From: Thermoplasmata archaeon
GTDB taxonomy: Archaea > Thermoplasmatota > E2 > JACPAO01 > JAHFTW01
Assembly: GCA_034667725.1 (NCBI GenBank)
Contig: JAXDQS010000004.1
Coordinates: forward strand, 43,878-107,877
Direction: 5' to 3'
Length of the DNA: 64,000 nucleotides
Part shown: piece by piece, positions 7,470-57,906 of the stretch
Numbering within the stretch: position 1 is the first letter of the stretch
Layout: each line of letters begins with the position of its first letter
The notes under the pieces: generated by a model
What the model was told of the DNA's origin: nothing
Databases searched by the model: none
The model's input: the letters and a program-made list of their open reading frames with translations, nothing else
Program-made: the position numbers and the translations under genes

Positions 7470-7513
7470 ACCACGGATTCCACGGATCGCACGGAACGAT
7501 TGGAATCCGTGGT
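7470..7513. repeat. Palindromic CACGGATTN-unit repeat element (intergenic copy)
   Basis: ACCACGGATTC-CACGGATCG-CACGGA...GAATCCGTGGT between convergent genes; same units at 42425, 44960 and 53080. Confidence 0.8.
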
Positions 7514-12570: not shown

Positions 12571-13170
12571 GTGGTCCGGACCACCATCTCGGAGGCCGTC
12601 TGCCCGGCGTGCAACGGCCAAGGCCTGGAATACACCGCCGAGCAGGTGGACCTGCCCTACATGGGGAACTCGCTCGAGACGCTGCTGCGCTGCGAGGCCT
12701 GCGGCTACCGGCACGCCGACTTCGTCCTCACCGAGCACCGCGAGCCGACCCGCTACATCTACGACGTGCGGCGCGCCGAGGACATGTCGGTGCGCGTCGT
12801 GCGCAGCGGCTCCGGCACCATCCGCATCCCGGAACTGGGCATCAGCATCGAGCCCGGTGTTGCCTCGGAGGCGTTCGTGTCGAACATCGAGGGCATCCTG
12901 GTGCGGGTCGAGCGCGTGCTGGACCAGCTCGGCCGCGACGCCGAGGAGGAGTCCATGCGCACCCGCGTCATGGACTTGCAGGACACCTTGGGCGCGCTGC
13001 GCGTCGGCACCGGACCCCCCGTCACGGTCATCCTGGAGGACCCGTTCGGCAACTCCGCCATCCTCGGGGAGGGCGCCCGCCACGAGCGCATCCCCCCCGA
13101 GGAGGCCGACCAGTTGAAGGTCGGGATGCTGGTCTACGACCCGGACGGCAAGCTCATCCGGGACGAGTAG
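12571..13170 (+). CDS. ZPR1 zinc-finger domain protein
   Basis: CPAC...CEACGYRH; IRIPELG..IEPG; SNIEG; LEDPFGNS. Confidence 0.92.
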   Translation: MVRTTISEAVCPACNGQGLEYTAEQVDLPYMGNSLETLLRCEACGYRHADFVLTEHREPTRYIYDVRRAEDMSVRVVRSGSGTIRIPELGISIEPGVASEAFVSNIEGILVRVERVLDQLGRDAEEESMRTRVMDLQDTLGALRVGTGPPVTVILEDPFGNSAILGEGARHERIPPEEADQLKVGMLVYDPDGKLIRDE

Positions 13171-13175
13171 CCCGG

Positions 13176-14132
13176 TCAGGTGGACTTCAGCACGCCGAGC
13201 GTCGGCTCGTAGACCAAGCCCTTGTCCATGAGGCGGTTGAGCGCCTCCTCGACCGACTCGGGCGTGATGCCGCCGGTGGACGCCGCGGCCAGGATGTCGT
13301 CCCAGCGCGCGCCCTTCTGCCCTTCGAGCTTCTGGACCGACGCGAACACCGCGTTGTCCAGCGCCTCCTCGGCGGCCCCCTTCTGGGGGTCCGCCTTCGG
13401 GGCGGGCGTGGGCGGCTTCCAGGCGGGCGTCGGCTCGGGCTCGGCGTCGTCCATGCGCGGCGGCGCCTGCTCGGCGCGGGCCTCGACGCGGTGGACGGGC
13501 ACGGAGCCGCCGCGCAGGTGCTCCAGCGCGGTGCGGACGGCGATGCCGTAGCGGCCGTCGTCGGCCAGGCCGTAGTGCTGCTGCGCGAGCGCCGCGCCCT
13601 CGGCAAGCGGGCGCGGGATGCCCTGCGCCGCAAGCGCGTCGGGGGTCGCGCCGCCGCGGGCCGCCTTGAACGCCTGCAGGCGCTCCTGGGTGCGGCGGGC
13701 GGTGTCGAGGATCCACTGGTCGCGGGTCTGCTCGTCGACGACGGCGATGGTCTCGGGGCGGATCGACACGAACACCGAGCCGGGCTCGGGCTCGTAGGTG
13801 CGCGCCTTGCCGGTGATGGCGACGAACTGCGGCGGCTGGAGCTGCGAGATGGCCTGCGCCGCCTCGGGCTGGTAGTTGCCGGCGTACACGGTGAAGACGC
13901 CGGTGGGGTCGCTGACGCGGGCACGCCAGACCTCGCCGGACTCGCCGACGGGCTCGACGTCGGTGCAGACGCCGACGACGTGGATGCGGTTCACCTTGGC
14001 GCCGAGCGGGGTCACGAGGAAGCTCGGGTCCTTCTCGCCGGCGCCGGGGATCTGGACGCGGCTGGCGTTGAACTCCTGGGCGAAGGCGCGGTGGGCGACC
14101 TCGCGCTGGATGCGGCGGGGGGCTTCGTCCAT
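13176..14132 (-). CDS. RPA-associated protein / RPA32-like (OB fold + C-terminal winged helix)
   Basis: REVAHRAFAQEF, TPLGAKVNRI, DPTGVF.VYAG.YQP, GLVYEP; coupled to RPA. Confidence 0.85.
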   Translation of the reverse strand: MDEAPRRIQREVAHRAFAQEFNASRVQIPGAGEKDPSFLVTPLGAKVNRIHVVGVCTDVEPVGESGEVWRARVSDPTGVFTVYAGNYQPEAAQAISQLQPPQFVAITGKARTYEPEPGSVFVSIRPETIAVVDEQTRDQWILDTARRTQERLQAFKAARGGATPDALAAQGIPRPLAEGAALAQQHYGLADDGRYGIAVRTALEHLRGGSVPVHRVEARAEQAPPRMDDAEPEPTPAWKPPTPAPKADPQKGAAEEALDNAVFASVQKLEGQKGARWDDILAAASTGGITPESVEEALNRLMDKGLVYEPTLGVLKST

Positions 14133-15451
14133 CAGGCCACCTCCAGCAGGGCGGCGGCCGCGGCCTTGGCGTCCTCGGCGTGGCGGGCCATCGACTGGAC
14201 GATGTAGGTGACGCCGTACTCGTCGCTCAGGGCGTTGCCGCGCACCGCGAACACGCGGCCGGTGAGCTTGGCCTTGAGCACCTCGAAGGCGAGGTCAGGG
14301 CGCAGCGTCTCCTTCTGGACCTCCTCCAGCGTCTTGCCCAAGAGCTGCTCGGTGACGGCGCGGCCGGCCACCAGGTTGACGGCGCCGGTGCCGTCGTCCA
14401 GGATGGCCTTGAGGCGGACGTCGGGGACGCCCGCGACCTGGTTGTGGATGCGGCACATGCCGGCGGCCAGGACGCGGGTGCAGCCGGCGGTGGAGCAGCG
14501 CTGGACGAGGCCGGAGCCGGGCCGGACCTCCAGGAGCGTGCCGACGACGTGCAGGTCGGAGCCGCCGTTGCGGGCCAGGACCTCGCGGATCGGCAGGGTG
14601 GGGCGCTTGGCCAGGAGCTCGGCCGGCGGCACCTCGGTGGCGGCGGGGCTGATGCGGGCGTCCGTGTCGAAGTTGAGCTGGGCGACCCCGCGGTAGGCGC
14701 GGATGTAGCCGCCCTCGATGGTGACGGCCTGGCCGGCAGCAAGGCCCGGGTCGGCCCAGGCGGTGAACTCGATGCGGCCGGAGGCGTCGGCGAGGGCGCC
14801 GCTCCAGACCGTCTTCTGGGTGCCTTGGACGGTGAGCTGGCGCGGCTGGATGTCGAGGATGCGGGCGGTGACGCGGATGCCGCGGACGCCGTCCTTCAGG
14901 TCGGCGATGGGCATGTCGCGGAACGTGACCGGCGTCTGGGGGAGGTCGGCCTCGTCGAGCTTGGCGACCTTGGTGCGGTCGCCGAAGTTGACCTGGACCT
15001 GGCCGTTGAACGCCTTGGTGTAGGCGCCCTCGACCTGGAGCACGTCGCCCTTCTGGAGGCCTTCGAGCGGGCGCCAGGAGGTGTAGGGGGCGGTGCCGGT
15101 CTCGTCGCCCAGGAGGCCCCAGACGATGTCCTTGGTCTCGCCGCGGGCGGTGACCGCCTTGGTGCTGACCGACAGGAGGCGGACCTTCAGGTTCACGAAG
15201 GGGCTGGCGGGCGGCAGGCTGGCAAGCGGGACGCGCTCCTGCGACACGGGGGCGGCGGCGCGGGCGGCGGCGGGCTGGACGCCGTGGTGCCGCTCGATGG
15301 TGCGGACGGCCTGGTCGATCGGGACGCCGTACTCCAGGTACTTGGCCAGCTCGTCGCGCAGGTCCTGCTCGTCCACCTCGGCGCCGAGCTTCGTTCCGAG
15401 GGTCTTCTTGAGCGCCGCCAAGTAGGGCGCCAGGTCTGGGGTGGTTTGCAT
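14132..15451 (-). CDS. Replication protein A (multi-OB-fold ssDNA-binding protein with Zn finger)
   Basis: Repeated GDETG / DASG / DDGTG OB motifs; C-x4-C...CRIH Zn finger. Confidence 0.88.
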   Translation of the reverse strand: MQTTPDLAPYLAALKKTLGTKLGAEVDEQDLRDELAKYLEYGVPIDQAVRTIERHHGVQPAAARAAAPVSQERVPLASLPPASPFVNLKVRLLSVSTKAVTARGETKDIVWGLLGDETGTAPYTSWRPLEGLQKGDVLQVEGAYTKAFNGQVQVNFGDRTKVAKLDEADLPQTPVTFRDMPIADLKDGVRGIRVTARILDIQPRQLTVQGTQKTVWSGALADASGRIEFTAWADPGLAAGQAVTIEGGYIRAYRGVAQLNFDTDARISPAATEVPPAELLAKRPTLPIREVLARNGGSDLHVVGTLLEVRPGSGLVQRCSTAGCTRVLAAGMCRIHNQVAGVPDVRLKAILDDGTGAVNLVAGRAVTEQLLGKTLEEVQKETLRPDLAFEVLKAKLTGRVFAVRGNALSDEYGVTYIVQSMARHAEDAKAAAAALLEVA

Positions 15452-17746: not shown

Positions 17747-18154
17747 TCAGGCCTTCTTCTGGTCCGTCAGGTTGGCGAAGTGGTCGCCGACGGGCTTGCT
17801 GCCGGCCTTGGCGACCTTCAGGTTGACCTGGACGATCTCGTTGGAGACGCGGTTGCCGCGCACCGACTGGCGCTTGCGCTTGCCAGGGTAGTCCGTCGGG
17901 TGGTAGCCGATGCCCTCGGTCAGCAGGAGGCGGCGGCGCACGGTGCCCTCGAAGTCGCCGCGCATGGGGAAGCCGGCCTTGTCGGAGCCGCCGGTGATCT
18001 GGAGCTTGTAGCCCGGCAGGTTGGCGTTGATGCCGTCCACCTGGTCGCCGATCTTCTTGCCGAGGAAGTTCTGGGCGTGGTGGCCGGTCACTTCGAAGTT
18101 GAAGGACTTGCCAGTGGCGGGGTCGTTGATGACGAGCTTGAAGGTCGTGGCCAT
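17747..18154 (-). CDS. rps6e: 30S ribosomal protein S6e
   Basis: FKLVINDP, GKKIGD, GYKLQITGGSDKAGFPMR, RKRQSVRGN, QVNLK; GGTGA SD upstream. Confidence 0.96.
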   Translation of the reverse strand: MATTFKLVINDPATGKSFNFEVTGHHAQNFLGKKIGDQVDGINANLPGYKLQITGGSDKAGFPMRGDFEGTVRRRLLLTEGIGYHPTDYPGKRKRQSVRGNRVSNEIVQVNLKVAKAGSKPVGDHFANLTDQKKA

Positions 18155-31754: not shown

Positions 31755-31909
31755 GCGAGGGGCCGCCCGAGCCTGCGAAGGGCGGTCCCGATGCGCTTCC
31801 TGCCGGCCGAGCGCCAGCGCGGCCGGGCGCAGCAAGCCACGAACCGGACTGCACGCTTCGACCGCCCCTCAGCGGGCGCTCTGCGCCTCGCTGGGGGCGC
31901 GTCTGCAGG

Positions 31910-31985
31910 CGGGAGATACCGGATTCGAACCGGTGAATGGCGGATTAAGAGTCCGCTGCCTTGGACCTGTCTCGGCTAATCTCCC
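31910..31985 (-). tRNA. tRNA-Lys (anticodon CTT)
   Basis: GGGAGAT/ATCTCCC acceptor, GCGGA-CTCTTAA-TCCGC anticodon arm, ACCGG-TTCGAAT-CCGGT T arm, G73; no encoded CCA, no intron. Confidence 0.9.
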
Positions 31986-33009: not shown

Positions 33010-33777
33010 CTATTCCTCGGAGTCGCCAGCGGCTTCCTTCTTGGCCGCGGGCGCGTCGTCGGCGTCCTCGTCCTTGGGCGCGTCTTTGGGGTCGGTGGCG
33101 CCGGAGCCGTGCTCGGCGCGCAGCTTCTCCATGGCGTCCTCGTCGTCGAACTTGCTGAGGTAGTCGGGCTCGACGGCCTCGGTGACGTAGACCGACTTGC
33201 CGGCGCGGAAGATGAAGTTGCCCGCCTCGCTGGCGGCCTTGACGTCGACCTCCAGCAGGATGGGGTCCGGGTTGTGGACGCGGCCGGCGCTGTACGCCTT
33301 GTCCGGCGTGGCGCTGAGGTGGATCATGTTGCGGTCGGAGGGGCGCAGGCCGGTCTCCAGCACCAGGTCGAGCTCCTCCTCGCTGACGGGGAAGTAGAGC
33401 TTGTCCACCTGGGCCTCGGGCAGGTCGTCGAGGTTGACGTTGACCGAGTGGGCGTAGGTCGCGCGGATCATGCCGCCGTCGATTTGGTAGCGGCCCTTCT
33501 CGTCGGTCTCGACCAGCGCCTGGATGTGCTCGGGGCGCAGCCAGCGGGCGTAGTTGGGGCGGGAGTTCCGGATGGCGCCGACGAACTCGTTGAGGTCGAC
33601 CCAGCCGCGGCCGTCCATCGTCAGGCCGAAGCGCTCCGGGAAGTGGCGCAGGATGCCGGCCATCATGCGGCCGACGCGGTCGATCTCGAAGTCCTTCATG
33701 ACGAAGCGGCCGGGGGTGTCGCAGAGCGGGCAGTTCTCTCCGCGGTAGTATCCATGGGTGCGGCATTGGGCGAGCAT
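33010..33777 (-). CDS. kptA: RNA 2'-phosphotransferase Tpt1/KptA with N-terminal Zn finger
   Basis: CRTHG...CPLC; ILRHFP; KGRY; IRATYAHS; IHLS. Confidence 0.9.
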   Translation of the reverse strand: MLAQCRTHGYYRGENCPLCDTPGRFVMKDFEIDRVGRMMAGILRHFPERFGLTMDGRGWVDLNEFVGAIRNSRPNYARWLRPEHIQALVETDEKGRYQIDGGMIRATYAHSVNVNLDDLPEAQVDKLYFPVSEEELDLVLETGLRPSDRNMIHLSATPDKAYSAGRVHNPDPILLEVDVKAASEAGNFIFRAGKSVYVTEAVEPDYLSKFDDEDAMEKLRAEHGSGATDPKDAPKDEDADDAPAAKKEAAGDSEE

Positions 33778-33782
33778 GGCAG

Positions 33783-33854
33783 AGGGGAGAGAGGGATTCG
33801 AACCCCCGTAAACGGGATCTGCAGTCCCGCGCATAGCCGCTTTGCTATCTCCCC
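33783..33854 (-). tRNA. tRNA-Cys (anticodon GCA)
   Basis: GGGGAGA/TCTCCCC acceptor, CGGGA-CTGCAGA-TCCCG, GGGGG-TTCGAAT-CCCTC, U73. Confidence 0.92.
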
Positions 33855-35540: not shown

Positions 35541-36059
35541 GTGTTGCGCCCAGGCGATGCGGCCCCCGACTTCGTCCTGAAGGACGCCGACGGCAACGAC
35601 GTCCGCCTGTCGTCGTTCGCGGGCCATCCCATCCTGCTGTTCTTCTACCCGCGGGACAACACCGCCGGCTGCACGCTGGAGGCGAAGAAGCTGCGCGACG
35701 CGGCGGGGGGGTTCGCGCGCCACGGCGCCCACGTGGTCGGGGTCAGCATGGACTCGCCGGAGACCCATTGCGCCTTCCGCGACAAGCACGACCTGCCGTT
35801 CACGCTGCTGTCCGACGCCGAGGGCCGGGTGCATGACCTGTACTCGGCGTGGCGCACCCACCTCTTGGGCAGGCGCCCGATCGGGGTCCGGCGCTGCAGC
35901 TTCCTCATCGACGGCGACGGCATCATCCGGGTCGTCTACAAGCACGTCCGGCCGCTCTCGCACGCCCGCCAGGTCCTGAAGGACCTGGAGCGGCTGGAGG
36001 CGCAGGAGTCGTGGGGCAAGCCGACGACGCCCGGCATCAAGGAGCTGCTGCGGCGCTAG
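35541..36059 (+). CDS. BCP-type peroxiredoxin (second, 1-Cys motif)
   Basis: GDAAPDF, FYPRDNTAGCTLEA, LPFTLLSD. Confidence 0.88.
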   Translation: MLRPGDAAPDFVLKDADGNDVRLSSFAGHPILLFFYPRDNTAGCTLEAKKLRDAAGGFARHGAHVVGVSMDSPETHCAFRDKHDLPFTLLSDAEGRVHDLYSAWRTHLLGRRPIGVRRCSFLIDGDGIIRVVYKHVRPLSHARQVLKDLERLEAQESWGKPTTPGIKELLRR

Positions 36060-36553
36060 GCAGGCGGGGCGGGCGTCACTTCGACCAGCACCGTGCTGGC
36101 CTCGACGGCCGACCCTTCGCTGACGTGGACGCGCGCGACCGTGCCCGCGATGGGCGACTTGAGGTCGTTCTGCATCTTCATCGCCTCCAGGACCAAGAGC
36201 ACGTCGCCCTCGGCCACGACCTGGCCTTCCTTGACCTTGACCTCGACGATCTTGCCGGGCATGGGGGGCTTGATGCGGCCGTCGTTCTTGCGGCCGGCGG
36301 CGTTCTTCCGGACCAGCTCGGGGCGGGCGCGGCGGACCTCCAGGTCCAGCAGGTGGGGGCCCTCGAACACCTGGCCGTTGCGGACGATGAACTCGAACGC
36401 CTTGCCCTCGACCGTGACCTTGTAGTGGCCCTTCGCGAGGGTCTCGACCTTGGGCGCGAACGGCTCGCCCTCGACCACGAACTTGGGGCCTTCGGCGTGC
36501 TCCTCGACGGTGACGTGGTGCAGGCGGCTGCCCAACTGGAACGAGTAGCGCAT
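36056..36553 (-). CDS. accB: Biotin carboxyl carrier protein
   Basis: PMPGKI...LEAMKMQN biotinylation motif; 1-bp overlap with the upstream stop. Confidence 0.92.
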   Translation of the reverse strand: MRYSFQLGSRLHHVTVEEHAEGPKFVVEGEPFAPKVETLAKGHYKVTVEGKAFEFIVRNGQVFEGPHLLDLEVRRARPELVRKNAAGRKNDGRIKPPMPGKIVEVKVKEGQVVAEGDVLLVLEAMKMQNDLKSPIAGTVARVHVSEGSAVEASTVLVEVTPAPPA

Positions 36554-38136
36554 CAGAGCAGCCCCCCGATGGCCTCGCGGCGGCCTTTCTGGCCCCAGGG
36601 GGACAGGCGGCGGCGCCCGAACTCGTCGACGCCGACGTTGGTGGCGGCGCTCTGCTTGAACTGGTATGCCTTCTGCACCAGCGAGTCGATGCCGCCGGGC
36701 TCCTGCGCCAGGGCGGCGGCGAGGGCGGCGAGCTTGACCTTGGTCTCCTTCGTGACGGCCTCCTCGACGCCCATGAGGCGGTCGAGGATGCGGCGCTCGT
36801 CGAGGAACTTCGTGGTCATGTCGCCGGCGCAGAACGCCTCGTCCTCGAAGATGACCTGGTGCAGCTCGCGGTTGGTGACGAGGTTGCCGAGGTCGTACTC
36901 GGCAAGGGCGCGGCGCATCTTGCGGATGGCCTCGGGCCGGTCGGCGCCGTAGCAGATGAGCTTGGCGACCATCGAGTCGTAGGTCGAGGGCACCTGGAAG
37001 CCGGAGTAGAGGTAGGTGTCCACGCGGACGCCGTTGCCGTTGGGCGGGACGTGGCGCGCGATCAGCCCAGGCGTCGGCATGAACTTGTTGCGCGGGTCCT
37101 CGGCGTTGATGCGGCACTCGATGGCCCAGCCGCGGCGGCGGGCATCGACCCACTTCTGGTCGTAGCCGAGCGGCTCGCCGGCGGCGATGCGAATCTGCTC
37201 GCGCACCAGGTCGATGCCGTAGACCTGCTCGGTGACGGGATGTTCGACTTGGAGGCGGGTGTTGACCTCGTTGAAGTAGAACTTGCCCTCCTCGTAGAGG
37301 AACTCCGCGGTGCCGGCGTTCCAGTAGCCGACGTCCTTGGCCAACTGGCACACCGACGCGCCGACGCGGGCGCGGTCCTCGTCCTTGACGATGGGGCTGG
37401 GGGCCTCCTCGATGAGCTTCTGGTGGCGGCGCTGGACGCTGCATTCGCGCTCGCCGAAGTGGACGACGTTGCCGTGCTCGTCGGCGAGGAACTGGATCTC
37501 GATGTGGCGGGGGCGCGTGATGAACTTCTCGATGAACACCTCGCCGCGCCCGAAGGCGGCCTTGGCCTGGCGTTGGGTGGCCGCGAGCGCGCCGGCAAGC
37601 TCGGACTCCGACTGGACGACCTGCATCCCCATGCCGCCGCCGCCGAACGCCGCCTTGATGATGACGGGGTAGCCGGTGAGCTTGACGACCTCACGCGCCT
37701 CGTCGAGGGTGGCGACGAACTCGTCCTTGCCGGGCACGACGGGCACCTTGGCCCTGCGCGCCGCGACCTTGCTCGCCACCTTGTCGCCCAGGACGTCGAT
37801 TGGCTTCGGGGGCGGGCCGATGAACTTGACGCCGGCCTTCGCAAGCGCGGTGGCGAACTCGCTGCGCTCCGACAGGAAGCCGTAGCCAGGGTGGACCGCG
37901 TCGGCGCCGACCTTCTGGGCCAGCTCCACGATAGCGGGGATGTTGAGGTAGTTCGTGGACGACGCCTCGTTGCCCAGGAGGTAGGACTCGTCGGCGAAGC
38001 GGACGTGCGGCGCCTTGGCGTCCTGCGGGCTGTGGATGGCCACGGTCTGGATGCCCAGCTCGCGGGCGGTGCGCATGACGCGCAGGGCAATCTCGCCACG
38101 GTTGGCGACCAGGATCTTGCGGAACAGGGGCTTCAT
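36553..38136 (-). CDS. accC: Biotin carboxylase
   Basis: ANRGEIA, HPGYGFLSE, GGGGMG, ERECSVQRRHQK, EVNTRLQVEH, ECRINAED. Confidence 0.95.
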   Translation of the reverse strand: MKPLFRKILVANRGEIALRVMRTARELGIQTVAIHSPQDAKAPHVRFADESYLLGNEASSTNYLNIPAIVELAQKVGADAVHPGYGFLSERSEFATALAKAGVKFIGPPPKPIDVLGDKVASKVAARRAKVPVVPGKDEFVATLDEAREVVKLTGYPVIIKAAFGGGGMGMQVVQSESELAGALAATQRQAKAAFGRGEVFIEKFITRPRHIEIQFLADEHGNVVHFGERECSVQRRHQKLIEEAPSPIVKDEDRARVGASVCQLAKDVGYWNAGTAEFLYEEGKFYFNEVNTRLQVEHPVTEQVYGIDLVREQIRIAAGEPLGYDQKWVDARRRGWAIECRINAEDPRNKFMPTPGLIARHVPPNGNGVRVDTYLYSGFQVPSTYDSMVAKLICYGADRPEAIRKMRRALAEYDLGNLVTNRELHQVIFEDEAFCAGDMTTKFLDERRILDRLMGVEEAVTKETKVKLAALAAALAQEPGGIDSLVQKAYQFKQSAATNVGVDEFGRRRLSPWGQKGRREAIGGLL

Positions 38137-39011
38137 GCGGGTTCCTCGGTGGCGAGCTCCCTGCCCGAGGGCAGGAAGGAGACGGAGGCGAGGACGGCGA
38201 GGCCGGCCTTGAGGACATCGAAGGGCAGGAACACGGTGCTGCCGAGGGCGAACGCCTTCGACCAGGACCATCCCAGCGTGAGCTTCAGCACCGGGACGCC
38301 GCACAAGTGGATGATGGCGACGGCCCCCAGCAGGACCAGGTAGAGGTTCAGCGCCTCGGAGCCGGCCGCGCGGCGGGACAGCAGCCAGCCGACCACGGGC
38401 GCGCACACCAGGAACAGCCCACCGAACAGCCAGGCATAGTCCAGGGTCGCGTCGTAGGCGTCGCCGCTGCCGGCGCCCGCGAACGAGCCGCCGCCCGCCA
38501 AGAAGAAGGTGCTGCCCACGACGCCCAGCAGCAGGACCAAGAGGCCGAAGCCGACGGCGCGGGTCCAGCGGGCGTCGAGCCCGCGCTGGCGGCGGCGCAT
38601 GTAGGCCCCGACGAACGCGGCCGCCGCGAAGAAGCCGACGAGGTAGCCTGCGGTGTAGCCGGTCTGACGCACAACGTCGGGCACCAGCACGCGCCAGCGG
38701 TCGGCGTGCCAGAGCGCGTCGGGGTTGAACGCGTCGGCGCTCGGCGCGAACACGTGCAGCCCCGCGAGTCCGGCCGCGAGGTAGAGACCCATCGACACCA
38801 TCGCCCAGCGGCCGCCGAGCATGACGCCGGCGAGCGCTACGCCCAGCACTTGGAAGGTGAACGGCACCGGCGTCCACGGCAGCGGCAGCGACACCTGCGC
38901 CAAGAGCGCGGTGAGGCCCGTGAAGGCGGCCGCGAAGCCGGCCTTGGCCATCCAGCCGAGCTCGTGCGCCTGGCGGTACGCCCGCAGCCGCGCGACCCGG
39001 ACGTCCGTCAC
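38133..39011 (-). CDS. bioY: BioY biotin transporter (long form)
   Basis: LPWTPVPFTFQ, YL..GL.GL.VFA, YTAGYLVGF, FLPFDVLK. Confidence 0.88.
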   Translation of the reverse strand: MTDVRVARLRAYRQAHELGWMAKAGFAAAFTGLTALLAQVSLPLPWTPVPFTFQVLGVALAGVMLGGRWAMVSMGLYLAAGLAGLHVFAPSADAFNPDALWHADRWRVLVPDVVRQTGYTAGYLVGFFAAAAFVGAYMRRRQRGLDARWTRAVGFGLLVLLLGVVGSTFFLAGGGSFAGAGSGDAYDATLDYAWLFGGLFLVCAPVVGWLLSRRAAGSEALNLYLVLLGAVAIIHLCGVPVLKLTLGWSWSKAFALGSTVFLPFDVLKAGLAVLASVSFLPSGRELATEEPA

Positions 39012-39012
39012 C

Positions 39013-47940
<8,928 letters not shown>

Positions 47941-48107
47941 GGGGACGACGCTCCAGGACCCCGGGTGGGGGCCCCGGCATTGGGTGGCATTCCCGGGGTA
48001 GGGGTCCACCAGATGAAACCTCTGCTTCCGGCCCTGTGGCGTGCTGTGCCAGGCCCTGCCGGCCACGCGGCCTGTGGGACCCGCCTTTCTTTAACCCAAC
48101 AGAAGGG

Positions 48108-48593
48108 ATGGCGCCTATCCGCTTCGACCAGCACCCCAACGCCTTGCTCGTGCACCATCTCTACGACGCGCTCGCCCGCCGCGACGGCGACGCCATGGCC
48201 GCCTGCTACACGCCCGACGCCGCCTTCTCGGACCCGGTCTTCCCCGACCTGCACGGCGCCGAGGTCGGGGCGATGTGGCGGATGCTCACCGCCCGCGGCG
48301 GCAGCATCACGGTCGAGGTCCGCGAAGTGGTCGCCAGCGCCACGGACGGCACCGCGACCTGGGAGGCGCGCTACCTGTTCGGCGCCACCGGCCGCAAGGT
48401 CCGCAACGTGGGCAACGCGGTGTTCACCTTCCGCGACGGCCGGATCGCGACGCACGTCGACACCTGGTCGTTCTCGGCGTGGGCGGCGCAGGCGCTCGGG
48501 CTGCGCGGGCGGCTGCTGGGCAAGACCGCGTTCCTGCGCCGGAAGGTGCGAAGGCAGGCGAGGCGAGGGTTGGAGAAGCTCCTCCCAGGATGA
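48108..48593 (+). CDS. SnoaL/NTF2-like protein
   Basis: LYDA...DGDAMAACY.PDA.FSDPVF..L.G....MW, W.A.Y.F..TGR.V.N, F.DGRI..H.D. Confidence 0.88.
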   Translation: MAPIRFDQHPNALLVHHLYDALARRDGDAMAACYTPDAAFSDPVFPDLHGAEVGAMWRMLTARGGSITVEVREVVASATDGTATWEARYLFGATGRKVRNVGNAVFTFRDGRIATHVDTWSFSAWAAQALGLRGRLLGKTAFLRRKVRRQARRGLEKLLPG

Positions 48594-48600
48594 TCAGCCA

Positions 48601-50223
48601 CTACAGTGGCGTCAGCCCATGCTTCTTCTGCGGCCGCTGCTCACGCTTGTTGATCAAAGGCCACAGCGCCTGGATCAACCGGGGCCGGGTCTCGCTCGGC
48701 TCGATGACGTCGTCGATCCAGCCCCGCTCCGCCGCGACGTAGGGGTTGGCGAACTTCTCCTGGTATTCGGCCTGGAACCTGGCGGCGAGCTCCTTGGCCT
48801 TGGCGGGGTCCTCCTCGAGGAGCTTCTGCATGTCGCGCTTGTAGAGGATGTTGACCGCGCCCTCGGCGCCCATGACGGCGATCTCGGCGGCGGGCCAGGC
48901 GAAGTTGACGTCGCTGCCGACGTGCTTCGAGGACATGACGATGTAGGCGCCGCCGTAGGACTTGCGGGTGATGACCGCGAGCTTGGGGACCGTGGCCTCG
49001 CAGTAGGCGTACAGCAGCTTGGCGCCGTTGCGGATGATGCCGCCGTGCTCCTGGCCGAGGCCGGGCAGGAAGCCGGGCACGTCGACGAACGAGATGATGG
49101 GGAAGTTGAACGAGTCGCAGAACCGGATCCACTTGGCGGCCTTGATGCTGGCCTCGATGTCGAGGGCGCCGGCGAGGACGCTGGGCTGGTTGGCGACGAT
49201 GCCGACGGGGTAGCCGTCGAGGCGGGCAAGGCCGATCACGACGTTGGTGGCCCACTTGGACTGCAGCTCCTCCCAGGTGCCCTTGTCCATGATGCGGGTG
49301 ATGATGTCGCGGATGTCGTAGGGCTTGTTCGGGTTGGGCGGGACGATGGTGTCCAGTTCCAGGTCCATGCGGAAGCGGTCGTCGGTCGGCTTGACGACGG
49401 GCAGCTCGGAGAGGTTGTTGCTCGGGAGGTAGGTGAGCAGGCTGCGGATCTTGCGGATGGCGTCGTCCTCGTCGAGGCCCGAGAAGCTCGCGACCCCGGA
49501 CTTGACGGTGTGCACCGAGGCGCCGCCCAGCTCCTCCTGGCTGGCCTCCTCGCCGGTGACGGTCTTGACGACGTCGGGGCCCGTCACGAACATATGGGAC
49601 GAGTCCTCGACCATCACGACGAAGTCCGTGAGCGCCGGGGAGTACACCGCGCCGCCGGCGGACGGGCCGACGATGACGGAGATCTGCGGGATGACGCCGC
49701 TGGCCTGGACGTTGCGGAAGAAGATGTCGCCGTAGCCCGCGAGGGACGCGACCCCCTCCTGGATGCGGGCGCCGCCGGAGTCGTTGAAGCCGATGATGGG
49801 CGCGCCGTTGCGGATCGCCATCTCCTGGACCTTGCAGATCTTCCTGGCCGTCTGCTCGCCCAGGGAGCCGCCGAGCACCGTGAAGTCCTGGCTGTAGATG
49901 TAGACCACGCGGCCGTTGACGTAGCCGTAGCCGGTCACGACGCCGTCGCCGTCGAAGCGCGACTTGTCCATCCCGAAGTGGGTGGCCTGGGTGCGGACGA
50001 AGGGATCGAGCTCGACGAACGTGCCCGGGTCGCACAGCAGGTCGATGCGCTCGCGGGCGGTGTACTTGCCCTTGTCGTGCTGGGCCTGGATGCGGGCCGT
50101 GCCGCCGCCCAGCATCGCCTTGGCCTTGCGGTCGCGCAGGCGGGCGATGGGGTCGAGCGGCTCGGTGGCGGCGAGGCCGTTCTTGGGCTTCGCGGCCTCC
50201 TTGGGCACGGCGGTCGGGCTCAT
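48601..50223 (-). CDS. Acyl-CoA carboxylase carboxyltransferase subunit (PccB type)
   Basis: GKYTARER, QDFTVLGGSLG, DSGGARIQEG, DVPGFLPG, RKSYGGAY, KKHG..PL; TTTACATA box about 25 nt upstream. Confidence 0.95.
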   Translation of the reverse strand: MSPTAVPKEAAKPKNGLAATEPLDPIARLRDRKAKAMLGGGTARIQAQHDKGKYTARERIDLLCDPGTFVELDPFVRTQATHFGMDKSRFDGDGVVTGYGYVNGRVVYIYSQDFTVLGGSLGEQTARKICKVQEMAIRNGAPIIGFNDSGGARIQEGVASLAGYGDIFFRNVQASGVIPQISVIVGPSAGGAVYSPALTDFVVMVEDSSHMFVTGPDVVKTVTGEEASQEELGGASVHTVKSGVASFSGLDEDDAIRKIRSLLTYLPSNNLSELPVVKPTDDRFRMDLELDTIVPPNPNKPYDIRDIITRIMDKGTWEELQSKWATNVVIGLARLDGYPVGIVANQPSVLAGALDIEASIKAAKWIRFCDSFNFPIISFVDVPGFLPGLGQEHGGIIRNGAKLLYAYCEATVPKLAVITRKSYGGAYIVMSSKHVGSDVNFAWPAAEIAVMGAEGAVNILYKRDMQKLLEEDPAKAKELAARFQAEYQEKFANPYVAAERGWIDDVIEPSETRPRLIQALWPLINKREQRPQKKHGLTPL

Positions 50224-52056: not shown

Positions 52057-52605
52057 CTACAGCATCCCGAGCTTGAGCTTCGCCGCCTCGGACATCATGG
52101 TGTAGGGGTTCCAGACCGGGAACAGCACCACCTGGGCGTCCACCGACGTGATGCCCGGGATCGCGCGCAGCGCCGCCTCGACGTCGCGCACCAGCACGTC
52201 GCCCATGCCGCAGCCCGGGCTCGTGAGGCCCATGCGGACCTCGGCGTGGAAGCCGCCGTCCTTCGGCGTCACCTTGCATGAGTGGACGAGGCCGAGGTCG
52301 ATGATGTCCACCGGGATCTCGGGGTCGTAGACGCCCTTGAGCTGCTCGCGCGCAAGCTGCTGGAGCGCCGCCGCGTCCTGCGGCACGTCCTGCCCCGCCG
52401 GCAGCACGCCGACCACCGGCTGGCCGATGGCGTCGCCGTCCTTGCCCGCGATGCGGAACTTGCCGCCGCCCTTCTCCGCCTGGACGGTGTAGCTGAACCC
52501 GAGCGCCTGGGTGAGCTTCACCATCGTGCCGGCGGCGAGCGGGGCGGGCTTGCCGTCGGGGATGCTGACGGCCTCGACGGGGCGCTTGAGCGGGACGTAG
52601 CTCAT
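52057..52605 (-). CDS. sufT: Fe-S assembly protein SufT (DUF59 with N-terminal extension)
   Basis: VYDPEIPVDIIDLGLV, LTSPGCGMG, MSEAAKL.LG. Confidence 0.88.
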   Translation of the reverse strand: MSYVPLKRPVEAVSIPDGKPAPLAAGTMVKLTQALGFSYTVQAEKGGGKFRIAGKDGDAIGQPVVGVLPAGQDVPQDAAALQQLAREQLKGVYDPEIPVDIIDLGLVHSCKVTPKDGGFHAEVRMGLTSPGCGMGDVLVRDVEAALRAIPGITSVDAQVVLFPVWNPYTMMSEAAKLKLGML

Positions 52606-53057
52606 TCCGTCGTCACCCGCTCTTGCCGTCCATGCAGCGCCGCGTGGAGCGTGTGCCAGCATAAGGTCGCGCATTTCACCCGCGCCGGGAACTCGCCAAC
52701 ACCTGCGAACACGCGCAGCTTGCCCAGCTCGGCGTCGGTCGGCGTGGGTCCGTCACGGACGATCAAGCGATGGAACATTTCGTAGACGCGCTCCACGTCA
52801 GCCTTGGTCTTGCCCTTGACGGCCTCCGTCATCAGGCTCGCGCTCGAGGTGCTGATGGCGCAGCCGGAGCCTTGGAACGAGGCGTCGGCCACCTTGTCGC
52901 CGTCGAACCGCAGGAACAGCGTCAGCCGGTCGCCGCACAACGGGTTGAAGCCTTCCTGCTTGGCGTCGGCGGGGTCCATGGCGCGGAAGTTGCGGGGCCG
53001 GCGGTTGTGATCCAGGATGACTTCCTGGTAGAGTTCGCGCATGTCGCTGTCGCTCAT
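52602..53057 (-). CDS. sufU: SUF-system SufU/NifU-family protein
   Basis: LYQEVILDH, NPLCGD, GSGCAIS, ARVKCATL.WH. Confidence 0.93.
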   Translation of the reverse strand: MSDSDMRELYQEVILDHNRRPRNFRAMDPADAKQEGFNPLCGDRLTLFLRFDGDKVADASFQGSGCAISTSSASLMTEAVKGKTKADVERVYEMFHRLIVRDGPTPTDAELGKLRVFAGVGEFPARVKCATLCWHTLHAALHGRQERVTTE

Positions 53058-53079
53058 GCCTGCGCCTCCTCTCCAGGAG

Positions 53080-53138
53080 CCACGGACTTCACGGATTGCA
53101 CGGACCCGATGTTCCGTGAAATCCGTGCGATCCGTGGT
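53080..53138. repeat. Palindromic CACGGATTN element (between sufS and sufU)
   Basis: CCACGGACTT-CACGGATTG-CACGGA / TCCGTG-AAATCCGTG-CGATCCGTGG. Confidence 0.85.
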
Positions 53139-53151
53139 TGAGGCGTGAGCG

Positions 53152-54369
53152 TCAAGCGAACAGCCTCACGACCTTCTGGAGGCTGGCGGCCAGCAGGTCC
53201 ACTTCCTCCTTGGTGTTGTAGGCGGCGAAGCTGGCGCGGTTGGTGGCCGGCAGGCCGTAGCGCTCCATGACGGGCTGGGCGCAGTGGTGGCCGGTGCGGA
53301 TGGCGATGCCGTCGCGGTCCACCAGCGAGCCGACGTCGTGCGGGTGGATGCCTTCGAGCGCGAAGCTGACGACGGCCGACTTGTGGGCGGCGGTGCCGAT
53401 GATGCGCAGGCCGGGAATCTCGCCCAACGCCTTGTTCGCGTGCTCGACCAGCGTGTGCTCGTGGGCGGCGATGTTCTCGACGCCCAGCTCCGCGATGAAC
53501 TGGACGGCGGTGCCGAGCCCGATGCCGCCGGCGATGTGCGGCGTGCCCGCCTCGAACTTGTGCGGCACGTCGTTGTAGGTGGTGCCATGGGTCAGCGAGA
53601 CGGAGCGAATCATGTCGCCGCCGCCTTGCCATGGCGGCATGGCCTCCAGGTGCTCGCGCTTGCCGTGGAGGAAGCCGACGCCTGTCGGGCCGTACATCTT
53701 GTGGCCGCTGGCGGCGTAGAAGTCGGCGCCCAGCTTGTGCAGGTCGAGCCGCAGGTGGCCGACCGCCTGCGCGCCGTCGACCAGGACCGGGACGCCTTTG
53801 GCATGGGCGGCCTCGACGATGTCCGCGACCGGGTTCACGGTGCCGAGGGCGTTGGAGGCGTGGACGACCGACATGAACTTGGTGCGGGGGCCGAGCAGCT
53901 TGGGGAACGCCGCCATGTCCAGCTCGCCCGTGTCCGTGATGGGGACGTAGCGCAGCTTGGCGCCGGTGGCCTCGCACACCATCTGCCAGGGGACGATGTT
54001 GCTGTGGTGCTCCATCTCGGTGATCAGCACCTCGTCGCCGGCCTTGAGGCGGGGGCGGACGAAGCTCTGCGCGACCAGGTTGATGGCCTCGGTGGTGCCG
54101 CGCAGCAGGACGGTCTCCTCGCCTTTGGCGCCGACGTGGCGGGCGAGGGCCTTGCGGGCGTCCTCGTACTGCTTGGTGGCCCGCTCGGACAGGAGGTGGA
54201 CGCCGCGGTGGATGTTCGCGTTGTCGTGCTCGTAGTAGTGGCGCAGGGCCTCGATGACGACGCGCGGCTTCTGGGTCGTGGCGGCGTTGTCGAGGTAGAC
54301 CAGCGGCTTGCCGTGGATGGGCTCGGCCAGGATGGGGAACTCGCGGCGGACCTTCTGGACGTCGAGCAT
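53152..54369 (-). CDS. sufS: Cysteine desulfurase
   Basis: YLDNAATTQKP, SGHKMYGPTG, RTGHHCAQP. Confidence 0.95.
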   Translation of the reverse strand: MLDVQKVRREFPILAEPIHGKPLVYLDNAATTQKPRVVIEALRHYYEHDNANIHRGVHLLSERATKQYEDARKALARHVGAKGEETVLLRGTTEAINLVAQSFVRPRLKAGDEVLITEMEHHSNIVPWQMVCEATGAKLRYVPITDTGELDMAAFPKLLGPRTKFMSVVHASNALGTVNPVADIVEAAHAKGVPVLVDGAQAVGHLRLDLHKLGADFYAASGHKMYGPTGVGFLHGKREHLEAMPPWQGGGDMIRSVSLTHGTTYNDVPHKFEAGTPHIAGGIGLGTAVQFIAELGVENIAAHEHTLVEHANKALGEIPGLRIIGTAAHKSAVVSFALEGIHPHDVGSLVDRDGIAIRTGHHCAQPVMERYGLPATNRASFAAYNTKEEVDLLAASLQKVVRLFA

Positions 54370-55708
54370 CAGGCCATCCCCTGCACGCGGCGGCAGGCGA
54401 ACCATTGCGCCAACAGGCCGTCCAGGAGCGTGCGCAGGCGGGGCGGCGCCTTCTCCAGCACCTCGGCGGCGAACGCCTGCGTCAGCATGAGGCGGGCGTG
54501 CTCCTCGTCGATGCCGCGGCTGCGGAGGAAGAACGTCGCGTCCTTGGAGAGCTGGCCGATGGTGCTGCCGTGGCTGCATTTGACGTCGTCGGCGTGGATC
54601 TCCAGCTGCGGCGTCGTGTCCACGAGCGCGCGGGTGGACAGCAGCAGGTTGCGGTTGGTCTGGTCGGCGTTGGTCTTCTGCGCGTCGGCGCGGACCTTGA
54701 CGTTGCCGAGGAACACGCCGCGGGCGGCGCCGTCGAGGACGCCCTTGTACACCTGGTGGCTGGTGGTGTGGTGGACGGCGTGGTCGATGTAGGTCGGGCA
54801 GTCGACGTGCTGGTTGCCGGTGCCGAGGAACAGGCCGTCGAGGTGGATCTCGGCGCCCGGCGCGCCCAGGATGGCGTGCGCCTCGTTGCGGGACAGCGCG
54901 GCGCCGACCGAGAACAGGAAGTCGCGCACGACGGCGTCGCGGTCCTGGCGGATCGCCAAGTGGCCGACGTGGAAGCCGTGCGGGTTCTCGCGCTGCAGGC
55001 GCACGTGCGACACGTGCGCGCCCGGGCCGGCCACCAGTTCCGTCACGGCGGTCGTGAGGCTCGGGTCGCCGCTCGGCAGGCCGACGAACGACTGCACGAC
55101 CGTGAGTTGCGCGCCGGCGCCTGCGACCACAAGGTGGCGCACGTGGCTGGCGGCCGGGCTGCGCGGCTCGGTGCTGAGGTGCAGCAGGTGGACGGGGGAC
55201 TCGGCGAGCGTGCCGGGTGATGCGACCACCACGCCGCCGTCCTGGAGGAACGCGGTGTTGAGCGCGACGAACGGCGCGTCGTTGTCGGCGTGGCGGGCCA
55301 AGTGGTGCTCCAGCGCGTCGCTGGGGCGCGCGAGGCTTGCGGCCAGGCTCTGGACCGTGAGCCCGCGCGGCAGGTCGCCGAGGAGGCTGAGGCCCGACAC
55401 GAAGTGGCCATCCACGAACACCAGCTCGTGGCTACCCGCGATGCGGTAGGGCGCGATCTCGGGCTCGGCCACGGCGCGGGCCGGGCCCGGCAGCGGCCGG
55501 AAGTGCTGGAGCGTGATGGGCCGCACCGAGGTGTGCTTCCACGCCTCCAGCCGGGTCGTGGGGAAGCCGCCCGCCTCGAACTGCGCGATGGCGGCGGCGC
55601 GCGCCTCGCGCACGAACTCGGGGCCGCGGCGGGCCCAGTTGCCGGCCTTGAACTCGGCGACGTAGGGTGCGTGCGCCGGTGGGTTCGTCACCGTCGCCTG
55701 CCGGGCCG

Positions 55709-55712
<4 letters not shown>
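54369..55712 (-). CDS. sufD: Fe-S cluster assembly protein SufD
   Basis: FPT.R.E.WK.T, PQLEIHADDVKCSHG, LRSRGI. Confidence 0.93.
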
Positions 55713-56449
<737 letters not shown>

Positions 56450-56451
56450 CT

Positions 56452-57906
<1,455 letters not shown>

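Follow-up and report, generated by a model that had tools for sequence, protein, structure and literature searches.

A Type R-like megasynthase with threonine-bearing carriers is native to a Thermoplasmata archaeon and may build fatty acyl chains

According to a 2024 preprint, archaea seem to be without a fatty-acid synthase of type I (FAS I), and nearly all of them lack acyl carrier protein (ACP) (bioRxiv 10.1101/2024.07.05.601840). Can an archaeon make acyl chains on carrier proteins? The question is raised by a locus in a Thermoplasmata archaeon (GenBank assembly GCA_034667725.1). The window analyzed here comprises 64,000 nucleotides of contig JAXDQS010000004.1 (positions 43,878 to 107,877; contig C4 of this genome) and contains a gene cluster around a 2975-aa megasynthase. 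An initial annotation, made from the letters of the DNA, described this cluster as self-contained and read the protein as two ketosynthases (KS1, KS2) flanking an acyltransferase (AT), followed by three ACPs, a ketoreductase (KR), a dehydratase (DH), and a phosphopantetheinyl transferase (PPTase). It proposed that the archaeon makes a malonyl-derived chain with a bearing on the lipid divide. Here we report that the cluster is native to the archaeon, that the enzyme belongs, by sequence, with the Type R secondary lipid synthases, as a variant with a fused PPTase, and that an ACP-dependent, fully reducing fatty-acyl synthase spread over three loci is the explanation we favor, with reservations.

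As the 2.32-Mb genome (71% GC, 90% complete) comes from a soil metagenome assembly, an assembly chimera or contaminating bacterial DNA had to be considered. The archaeal markers previously seen on the synthase contig are present: S6e (17747-18154; NF003294, above cut-off), ZPR1 (12571-13170), RPA (14132-15451), and KptA (33010-33777). GC content is flat across the cluster (0.68-0.74), and codon usage is host-like, as had been claimed, with a codon adaptation index of 0.771 for the synthase (42nd percentile; genome median 0.783) and a third-position GC content of 0.958. The palindromic repeat reported both within the synthase and between genes (9-bp unit) gave 46 matches genome-wide and none in shuffled sequences. 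Besides the in-frame copies in the ACP2-ACP3 linker, one lies at about 44961 in the AT-KS2 linker, likewise in frame, a weaker one at ~43135, and others between genes at 7471, 53080, and 53113. A related, more abundant repeat also occurs genome-wide (18-mers, up to 50 copies). Assembled contigs from a soil run that is possibly the source sample, the only material used for the depth check, matched with zero mismatches at a depth of 9.4-14 over 32.0-51.9 kb, showed no coverage shift, and bridged three junctions (the BCCP flank, biotin carboxylase/BioY/synthase, and the synthase start), although none spans the whole region.

The comparative evidence is stronger than the initial annotation had claimed. 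Of 30 genomes sampled from the same order, 29 have a KS1 ortholog (53-79% identity in the KS1 region); the ten taken from other orders of the class have none. The gene order suf, carboxyltransferase, synthase, (BioY), biotin carboxylase, BCCP is kept in independent assemblies, and this synteny refutes a chimera. In a tree of the KS1-AT-KS2 region, the sequences of the order group with those of one sister family (support 99) in a branch that is wholly archaeal and mirrors taxonomy in its internal arrangement. The closest neighbors in the tree are all archaeal, and the named homologs belong to Thermoplasmata's phylum, Thermoplasmatota. The cluster is confirmed as native to the archaeon, the chance of a chimera being vanishingly small, and the synthase is apparently vertically inherited and near-fixed in the order.

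The megasynthase reading frame starts with ATG and contains neither stops nor Ns, and Pfam domain calls bore out the architecture and its order (Table 1), from a KS and the AT through another KS, the three ACPs, and the KR to a PKS-type DH and, at the C terminus, an ACPS/PPTase. KS1, KR, and DH are PfaA/PKS-like, in contrast to KS2, which is closest by sequence to free-standing FabF (E 4e-27) and whose predicted fold (pLDDT 88.6) has FabF as its top matches. A role for KS2 as a chain-length factor (CLF) was ruled out because its C1273/H1421/H1461 triad is invariant in 40 homologs, including Elusimicrobium, a named Type R genus. In Elusimicrobium and Oscillochloris the PPTase is a separate protein encoded downstream; the fused domain aligns with both, and its D2868/E2870/K2909/E2910 are invariant across archaeal fused and bacterial free-standing partners. 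All catalytic residues of the synthase are intact and conserved. AT would load malonyl units, KS1 and the FabF-like KS2 would elongate iteratively, probably over different chain-length ranges, and KR and DH would reduce and dehydrate the intermediates.

Table 1 Features of the synthase system. Coordinates are those of the window unless another contig is given.
Feature	Coordinates	Strand	Remarks
Type R-like iterative megasynthase, KS1-AT-KS2-ACP x3-KR-DH-PPTase	39013..47940	-	2975 aa
KS1, PfaA/type I-like	46471..47910	-	C231, H365, H408; borders approximate
AT	45196..46143	-	GHS motif (S702) and AAFH motif, malonyl type; specificity predicted from the motif
KS2, FabF-like fold with helical insert	43261..44778	-	C1273, H1421, H1461
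Three tandem ACPs	42181..43098	-	Thr at the canonical phosphopantetheine Ser
Palindromic repeat, in frame, ACP2-ACP3 linker	42426..42485		copies at 42426, 42461
KR catalytic domain	40852..41520	-	Rossmann motif at aa 2143; Y2331
DH, PKS-type double hot dog	39751..40605	-	H2476 and E2648 invariant (His/Glu instead of His/Asp)
Fused PPTase	39061..39585	-	D2868, E2870, K2909, E2910
Acyl-CoA carboxylase carboxyltransferase subunit (PccB/MmdA-like)	48601..50223	-	
SnoaL-like gene	48108..48593	+	between carboxyltransferase and synthase
BioY biotin transporter	38133..39011	-	abuts synthase stop; in some relatives' clusters
Biotin carboxylase subunit	36553..38136	-	
BCCP	36056..36553	-	
FabI-like enoyl reductase	contig C3:650432-651325 (L060:1396-2289)	minus	unlinked to the synthase in this genome

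Type R synthases are reported from Koribacter, Solibacter, Elusimicrobium, and Roseiflexus in a study that mentions neither archaea nor threonine (Shulse & Allen 2011, PMC3098273). The likeness lies in a single PfaA homolog with the order KS-MAT-(CLF/KS)-ACP3-6-KR, MAT being malonyl acyltransferase (three ACPs here), in PPTase activity directly downstream (here as a C-terminal fusion), in the acetyl-CoA carboxylase genes that often lie near Type R synthases, and in ~43% identity to an Elusimicrobium posterum protein over 2008 aligned residues; homology was judged through Elusimicrobium and Chloroflexota homologs and not the five 2011 reference proteins. The present system differs in its archaeal host, fused PPTase, intact FabF-like KS in the 'CLF' slot, C-terminal DH, complete three-subunit carboxylase with BioY, FabI-like partner, and threonine carriers. 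Type R enzymes are secondary to a fatty-acid synthase of type II (FAS II), and no FAS II was found in this host, a difference of host context and not of the enzyme. The earlier description of the synthase as uncharacterized holds, no product being known for Type R; its architecture is not new.

Polyunsaturated fatty acid (PUFA) synthases of the PfaA type (Types A and B) and Hgl synthases share the KS-MAT, tandem ACPs, and KR, and the best NCBIfam match of the synthase is TIGR02813 (945.5 bits, below the 1010 cut-off). Unlike the PUFA systems, the cluster is without PfaB, PfaC (KS-CLF-DH2), and PfaD, and its carriers bear threonine; a FabA-type dehydratase/isomerase (PF07977) had no match in this genome. 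If the proposed pathway holds, the system would resemble the type I FAS of animals, fungi, and mycobacteria in being iterative, ACP-bound, and fully reducing; fungal FAS also primes itself. The domain order is different, there are two KS domains, the enoyl reductase (ER) would act in trans, and thioesterase and malonyl/palmitoyl transferase (MPT) domains are missing, and we claim no common ancestry. The activities of type I FAS are not all in one chain here, as by sequence they are in the fused Heimdall and SW_10_69_26 forms described below. The fatty-acid synthase complex of Sulfolobus also makes archaeal fatty acids de novo, but is ACP-independent and CoA-based, with a ketothiolase/DUF35 (bioRxiv 10.1101/2024.07.05.601840), whereas the system here is ACP-based. 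Published work was searched for a Type R enzyme or a type I FAS in archaea, and for threonine phosphopantetheinylation; nothing on point turned up, most subscription papers lying outside the search.

A feature overlooked by the initial annotation is that all three carriers have threonine at the attachment site. Thr1645 (ACC, 43008), Thr1767 (ACG, 42642), and Thr1883 (ACC, 42294) align with the serine of the PigH ACP, and the canonical serine at the start of helix II is found in none of the three carriers. Threonine occupies this position in 578 carrier motifs from 120 homologs, and 86 further homologs contributed 232 motifs with threonine and 10 with serine. Three Heimdall-type homologs (P0131, P0132, P0133) have serine in place of threonine, as expected if the hydroxyl is what counts, and are natural controls for PPTase specificity. 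Multiple carrier copies are retained in every full-length homolog. Because a conserved PPTase is fused or adjacent, priming on threonine is the simplest reading, and the fused domain would prime the synthase's own three carriers, most likely on this residue.

The non-canonical threonine can also be taken to mean that the carriers stay unprimed, with catalysis on CoA thioesters, or that the enzyme is an elongase or remodeling system that extends scavenged acyl-CoAs. AcpS reportedly does not prime the S36T mutant of Escherichia coli ACP, the cluster contains no starter enzyme of the FabH type, and 14 genomes of one family have GpsA without the synthase. In addition, Poseidoniales degrade fatty acids (PMC6461757). 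We consider such an elongase improbable, since the PPTase beside or within the synthase has kept its catalytic residues invariant, serine stands at the same carrier site in the Heimdall-type homologs, and no full-length homolog has given up its multiple carriers.

No ER domain was found by Pfam in the 2975-aa protein, and 'self-contained' overstates a cluster that has neither an enoyl reductase nor a release enzyme. A candidate reductase was instead located on contig C3 (Table 1). In one archaeal locus, whose synthase homolog groups with Asgard sequences, a FabI-like gene directly follows the synthase, and the C3 protein is a 59%-identical ortholog of that reductase. Across 301 Thermoplasmatota the FabI-like gene occurs in 79, all of them (79/79) among the 102 synthase carriers and none among the 199 non-carriers, although these and the other co-occurrence counts represent a few lineage-level events and not independent samples. 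Within one family the FabI-like gene and the synthase are found in the same 9 of 23 genomes, and in three other Thermoplasmatota families the gene directly precedes the synthase. The remaining 23 carriers have no FabI-like gene. Of these, a FabK/PfaD-type domain is fused in the SW_10_69_26 protein, a free reductase of this type is encoded elsewhere in two members of another family that were tested, and one family gave no clear ER. Heimdall forms of ~3580 aa also carry a fused FabK/PfaD-type reductase domain. In the fused forms P0153 (L067:10001-20746) and P0208 the reductase is N-terminal, which places all cycle activities in one chain. At two bacterial loci, one of them in Oscillochloris, an acyl-CoA-dehydrogenase-family gene stands before the synthase. 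FabI-like, FabK/PfaD-type, and acyl-CoA-dehydrogenase-family genes are thus three apparent, separate solutions for the reductase step.

We argue from this recurring adjacency and fusion that the pathway reduces enoyl intermediates, and that the C3 enzyme would complete each cycle in trans to give saturated long acyl chains. The co-inherited reductase favors saturated chains over a polyene, the option that the initial annotation had left standing beside acyl chains. Enediyne PksE enzymes have the layout KS-AT-ACP-KR-DH-PPTase with no internal ER, and the KR, DH, and C-terminal PPTase of the present protein, together with its missing ER domain, would fit a PksE-like synthase of a conjugated pigment. 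However, PksE has a single KS, a single ACP, and a thioesterase cassette next to it, whereas the present system has a second KS, three tandem carriers, and no thioesterase in the cluster. In most lineages, moreover, a reductase is inherited with the synthase, lies beside it, or is fused to it; a polyene product is about as improbable as an elongase.

Malonyl supply appears to be provided within the cluster. The carboxyltransferase gene precedes that of the synthase, lying upstream in almost every relative, and BioY, biotin carboxylase, and BCCP follow downstream with stops and starts that abut or overlap. As the genome has other carboxylase subunits elsewhere, the enzyme encoded here looks dedicated; with BioY it would supply malonyl-CoA, presumably acting on acetyl-CoA rather than propionyl-CoA. 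The claim of a malonyl-derived chain is to this extent sustained, by ACP-based chemistry and a carboxylase of its own, the polyene option aside; the identity of the product, like any part it plays in membranes, is a matter of prediction. A SnoaL-like gene was considered as a pathway member and set aside, being on the opposite strand and not found in related loci; it is probably not part of the system. No release enzyme or thioesterase was found in the cluster or its conserved neighborhood. Directly upstream, at 52057-57906, sequence motifs indicate an apparent suf Fe-S assembly operon, which is syntenic in relatives. Other features nearby are tRNA-Lys(CTT) at 31908-31985 and tRNA-Cys(GCA) at 33782-33854 of the window, and a dethiobiotin-synthase-like gene (by motif) ~18 kb before window position 1 on the same contig.

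Where might the chains go? Strong GpsA matches track the order (29/30, versus 0/10 in other orders), as do PlsC-family acyltransferases (PF01553; 30/30 versus 1/10); this genome has GpsA above cut-off and two PF01553 proteins. Desaturases were present in five of five carriers tested. Phylum-wide, GpsA occurs in 82 of the 102 carriers, and acyltransferases in four of four carriers and in the one non-carrier tested. The two desaturase-family genes of this genome lie at C3:395142-396032 and about C3:147103-147735, one of them 6 kb from a PlsC-like gene. On contig C10 (447412-448709; L052), a PF01553 acyltransferase weakly matching DAGAT lies convergent to a lipase-like hydrolase, the two being a possible remodeling or neutral-lipid pair. 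A type III polyketide synthase (PKS; C1:171120-172163) could be a second sink for chains in the 17 carriers that have it. A search for the storage-lipid enzyme WS/DGAT gave no match in five genomes and was uninformative, its control being silent. The ether-lipid pathway is retained, with genes for the G1PDH family, GGGPS, DGGGPS, GGR, and CarS. An ether-lipid cluster at C3:238155-242398 and C3:248213-249271 (L053) contains ferredoxin, GGR, DGGGPS, GGGPS, and an MvaD-like decarboxylase, with G1PDH nearby. Stand-alone ACP, FabF, and FabZ were not found in this 90%-complete genome, so the synthase is its only ACP system, and FabZ was not found in three relatives either. One of these three (G017) has a second, unrelated large ketosynthase gene at C1:342012-343394.

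From these genes we propose that the chains would enter acyl-lipid metabolism through GpsA, the two PlsC-family acyltransferases, the two desaturases, and, in this genus, the type III PKS, giving acyl lipids in addition to archaeol. That the synthase builds reduced acyl chains de novo is likely. That they end up in glycerol esters is a tentative proposal to which we give slightly less than an even chance.

A number of observations weigh against the favored pathway. Attachment of phosphopantetheine to threonine is a prediction, the FabI-like protein scores below every curated FabI cut-off, and few lineage-level events lie behind the co-occurrence counts. The match between synthase and lipid genes is imperfect: 19 carriers in two families have neither GpsA nor FabI matches, and 18 non-carriers have GpsA. 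In this genome PlsY was not found, CdsA had no clear match, and a ~520-aa GPAT/PlsB-like acyltransferase that many relatives of the order possess (L086:2258-3817, L087, L088, L091) was not found, the assembled syntenic site included. CarS reportedly favors its archaeal substrate over phosphatidic acid (PMC9385802); given this discrimination, any phosphatidic acid formed might be directed into neutral lipids or glycolipids. Type R synthases are described only from bacteria and their product is uncharacterized (Shulse & Allen 2011, PMC3098273). In the phylum of Oscillochloris, five carriers were found among 121 genomes, and all five keep stand-alone AcpP; Oscillochloris has two FabF-like genes besides the synthase, and Elusimicrobium posterum has ACP and FabZ. 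The idea that Type R replaces FAS II in bacteria is thus not supported, FAS II parts being kept in the six or so bacterial carriers examined. Since they are kept, the synthase is probably a specialist in those bacteria, and by analogy the archaeal product may be a specialist one too.

We therefore weighed the possibility that the archaeal enzyme, like its bacterial kin, makes an unusual chain, be it very long, branched by methyl groups, hydroxylated, or joined head-to-head, that has little to do with glycerol esters. Such a chain would end up in a minor lipid of the envelope, of storage, or of anchoring, or would serve the type III PKS as a starter for alkylresorcinols or pyrones. The PfaA/PKS-type KS1, KR, and DH, the lack of a clear CdsA, and the acyltransferase with a DAGAT match beside a lipase suit this account, as does the PccB/MmdA-like carboxyltransferase, which could provide methylmalonyl-CoA; the malonyl-type motif of the AT speaks against it. 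All 17 type III PKS matches in the 301 genomes fall in synthase carriers. Yet this enzyme was not found in 85 of the 102 carriers, including all 47 Poseidoniaceae, and was discarded as a general reason for retaining the synthase. Across the order, moreover, the synthase is found together with GpsA, acyltransferases, and desaturases, and a specialist product is, in our judgment, a serious minority possibility.

The synthase is present in 102 of the 301 Thermoplasmatota and in 47 of 47 sampled Poseidoniaceae genomes; the Poseidoniaceae form (L069:5070-13895) keeps the KS2 triad and is without the C-terminal PPTase domain. Homologs occur in Heimdallarchaeota, Kariarchaeaceae, and one Thorarchaeota bin, and others with full architecture in Elusimicrobium and Chloroflexota (E = 0). 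A single archaeal clade was neither rejected nor shown by the approximately unbiased (AU) test (p-AU 0.6), in which 14 unlabeled fused-PPTase rows were counted as archaeal. The synthase tree, a quick LG+G4 search with long branches for Marine Group IIa and SW_10_69_26, has no root, and its deep nodes are not resolved; because of these limits we name no donor and no direction of transfer.

Surveys of biosynthetic gene clusters (BGC) include counts of type I PKS for marine archaea but name no function, and Iverson and colleagues are said to have seen ACP fatty-acid genes in the first Marine Group II genome in 2012. Mixed-membrane proposals for Marine Group II and the Asgards rest on GpsA and PlsC-type genes, and in passages of these studies no source of acyl chains is named (PMC6461757, PMC6431249, PMC9385802). 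The synthase offers the source that was lacking. Poseidoniales are without G1PDH, whereas the present order keeps G1PDH, GGGPS, DGGGPS, GGR, and CarS beside acyl genes and, having complete ether-lipid and most ester-lipid genes, is a clean test case.

The bearing on the lipid divide proposed at the outset is upheld. The synthase is close to fixed in the order, and it is widespread both in Heimdall Asgards and in Thermoplasmatota, where a third of the sampled genomes have it, among them those of Poseidoniaceae, an abundant marine family. An ACP pathway that is native and shared across a lineage runs counter to the standing generalization on archaea and makes the textbook lipid divide testable. 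Two biochemical questions stand on their own, namely threonine as the bearer of phosphopantetheine, and what a second, FabF-like KS does in a type I chain. A bolder reading, which we regard as unlikely at present, is that this order, and probably also Poseidoniales and Heimdall Asgards, would use a type I synthase that primes itself and links chains through threonine to make fatty acids de novo, and would esterify these to glycerol phosphate as a substantial part of the membrane beside archaeol, the ACP pathway perhaps being old in Archaea. If true, this would be a natural mixed ether/ester membrane in the Archaea.

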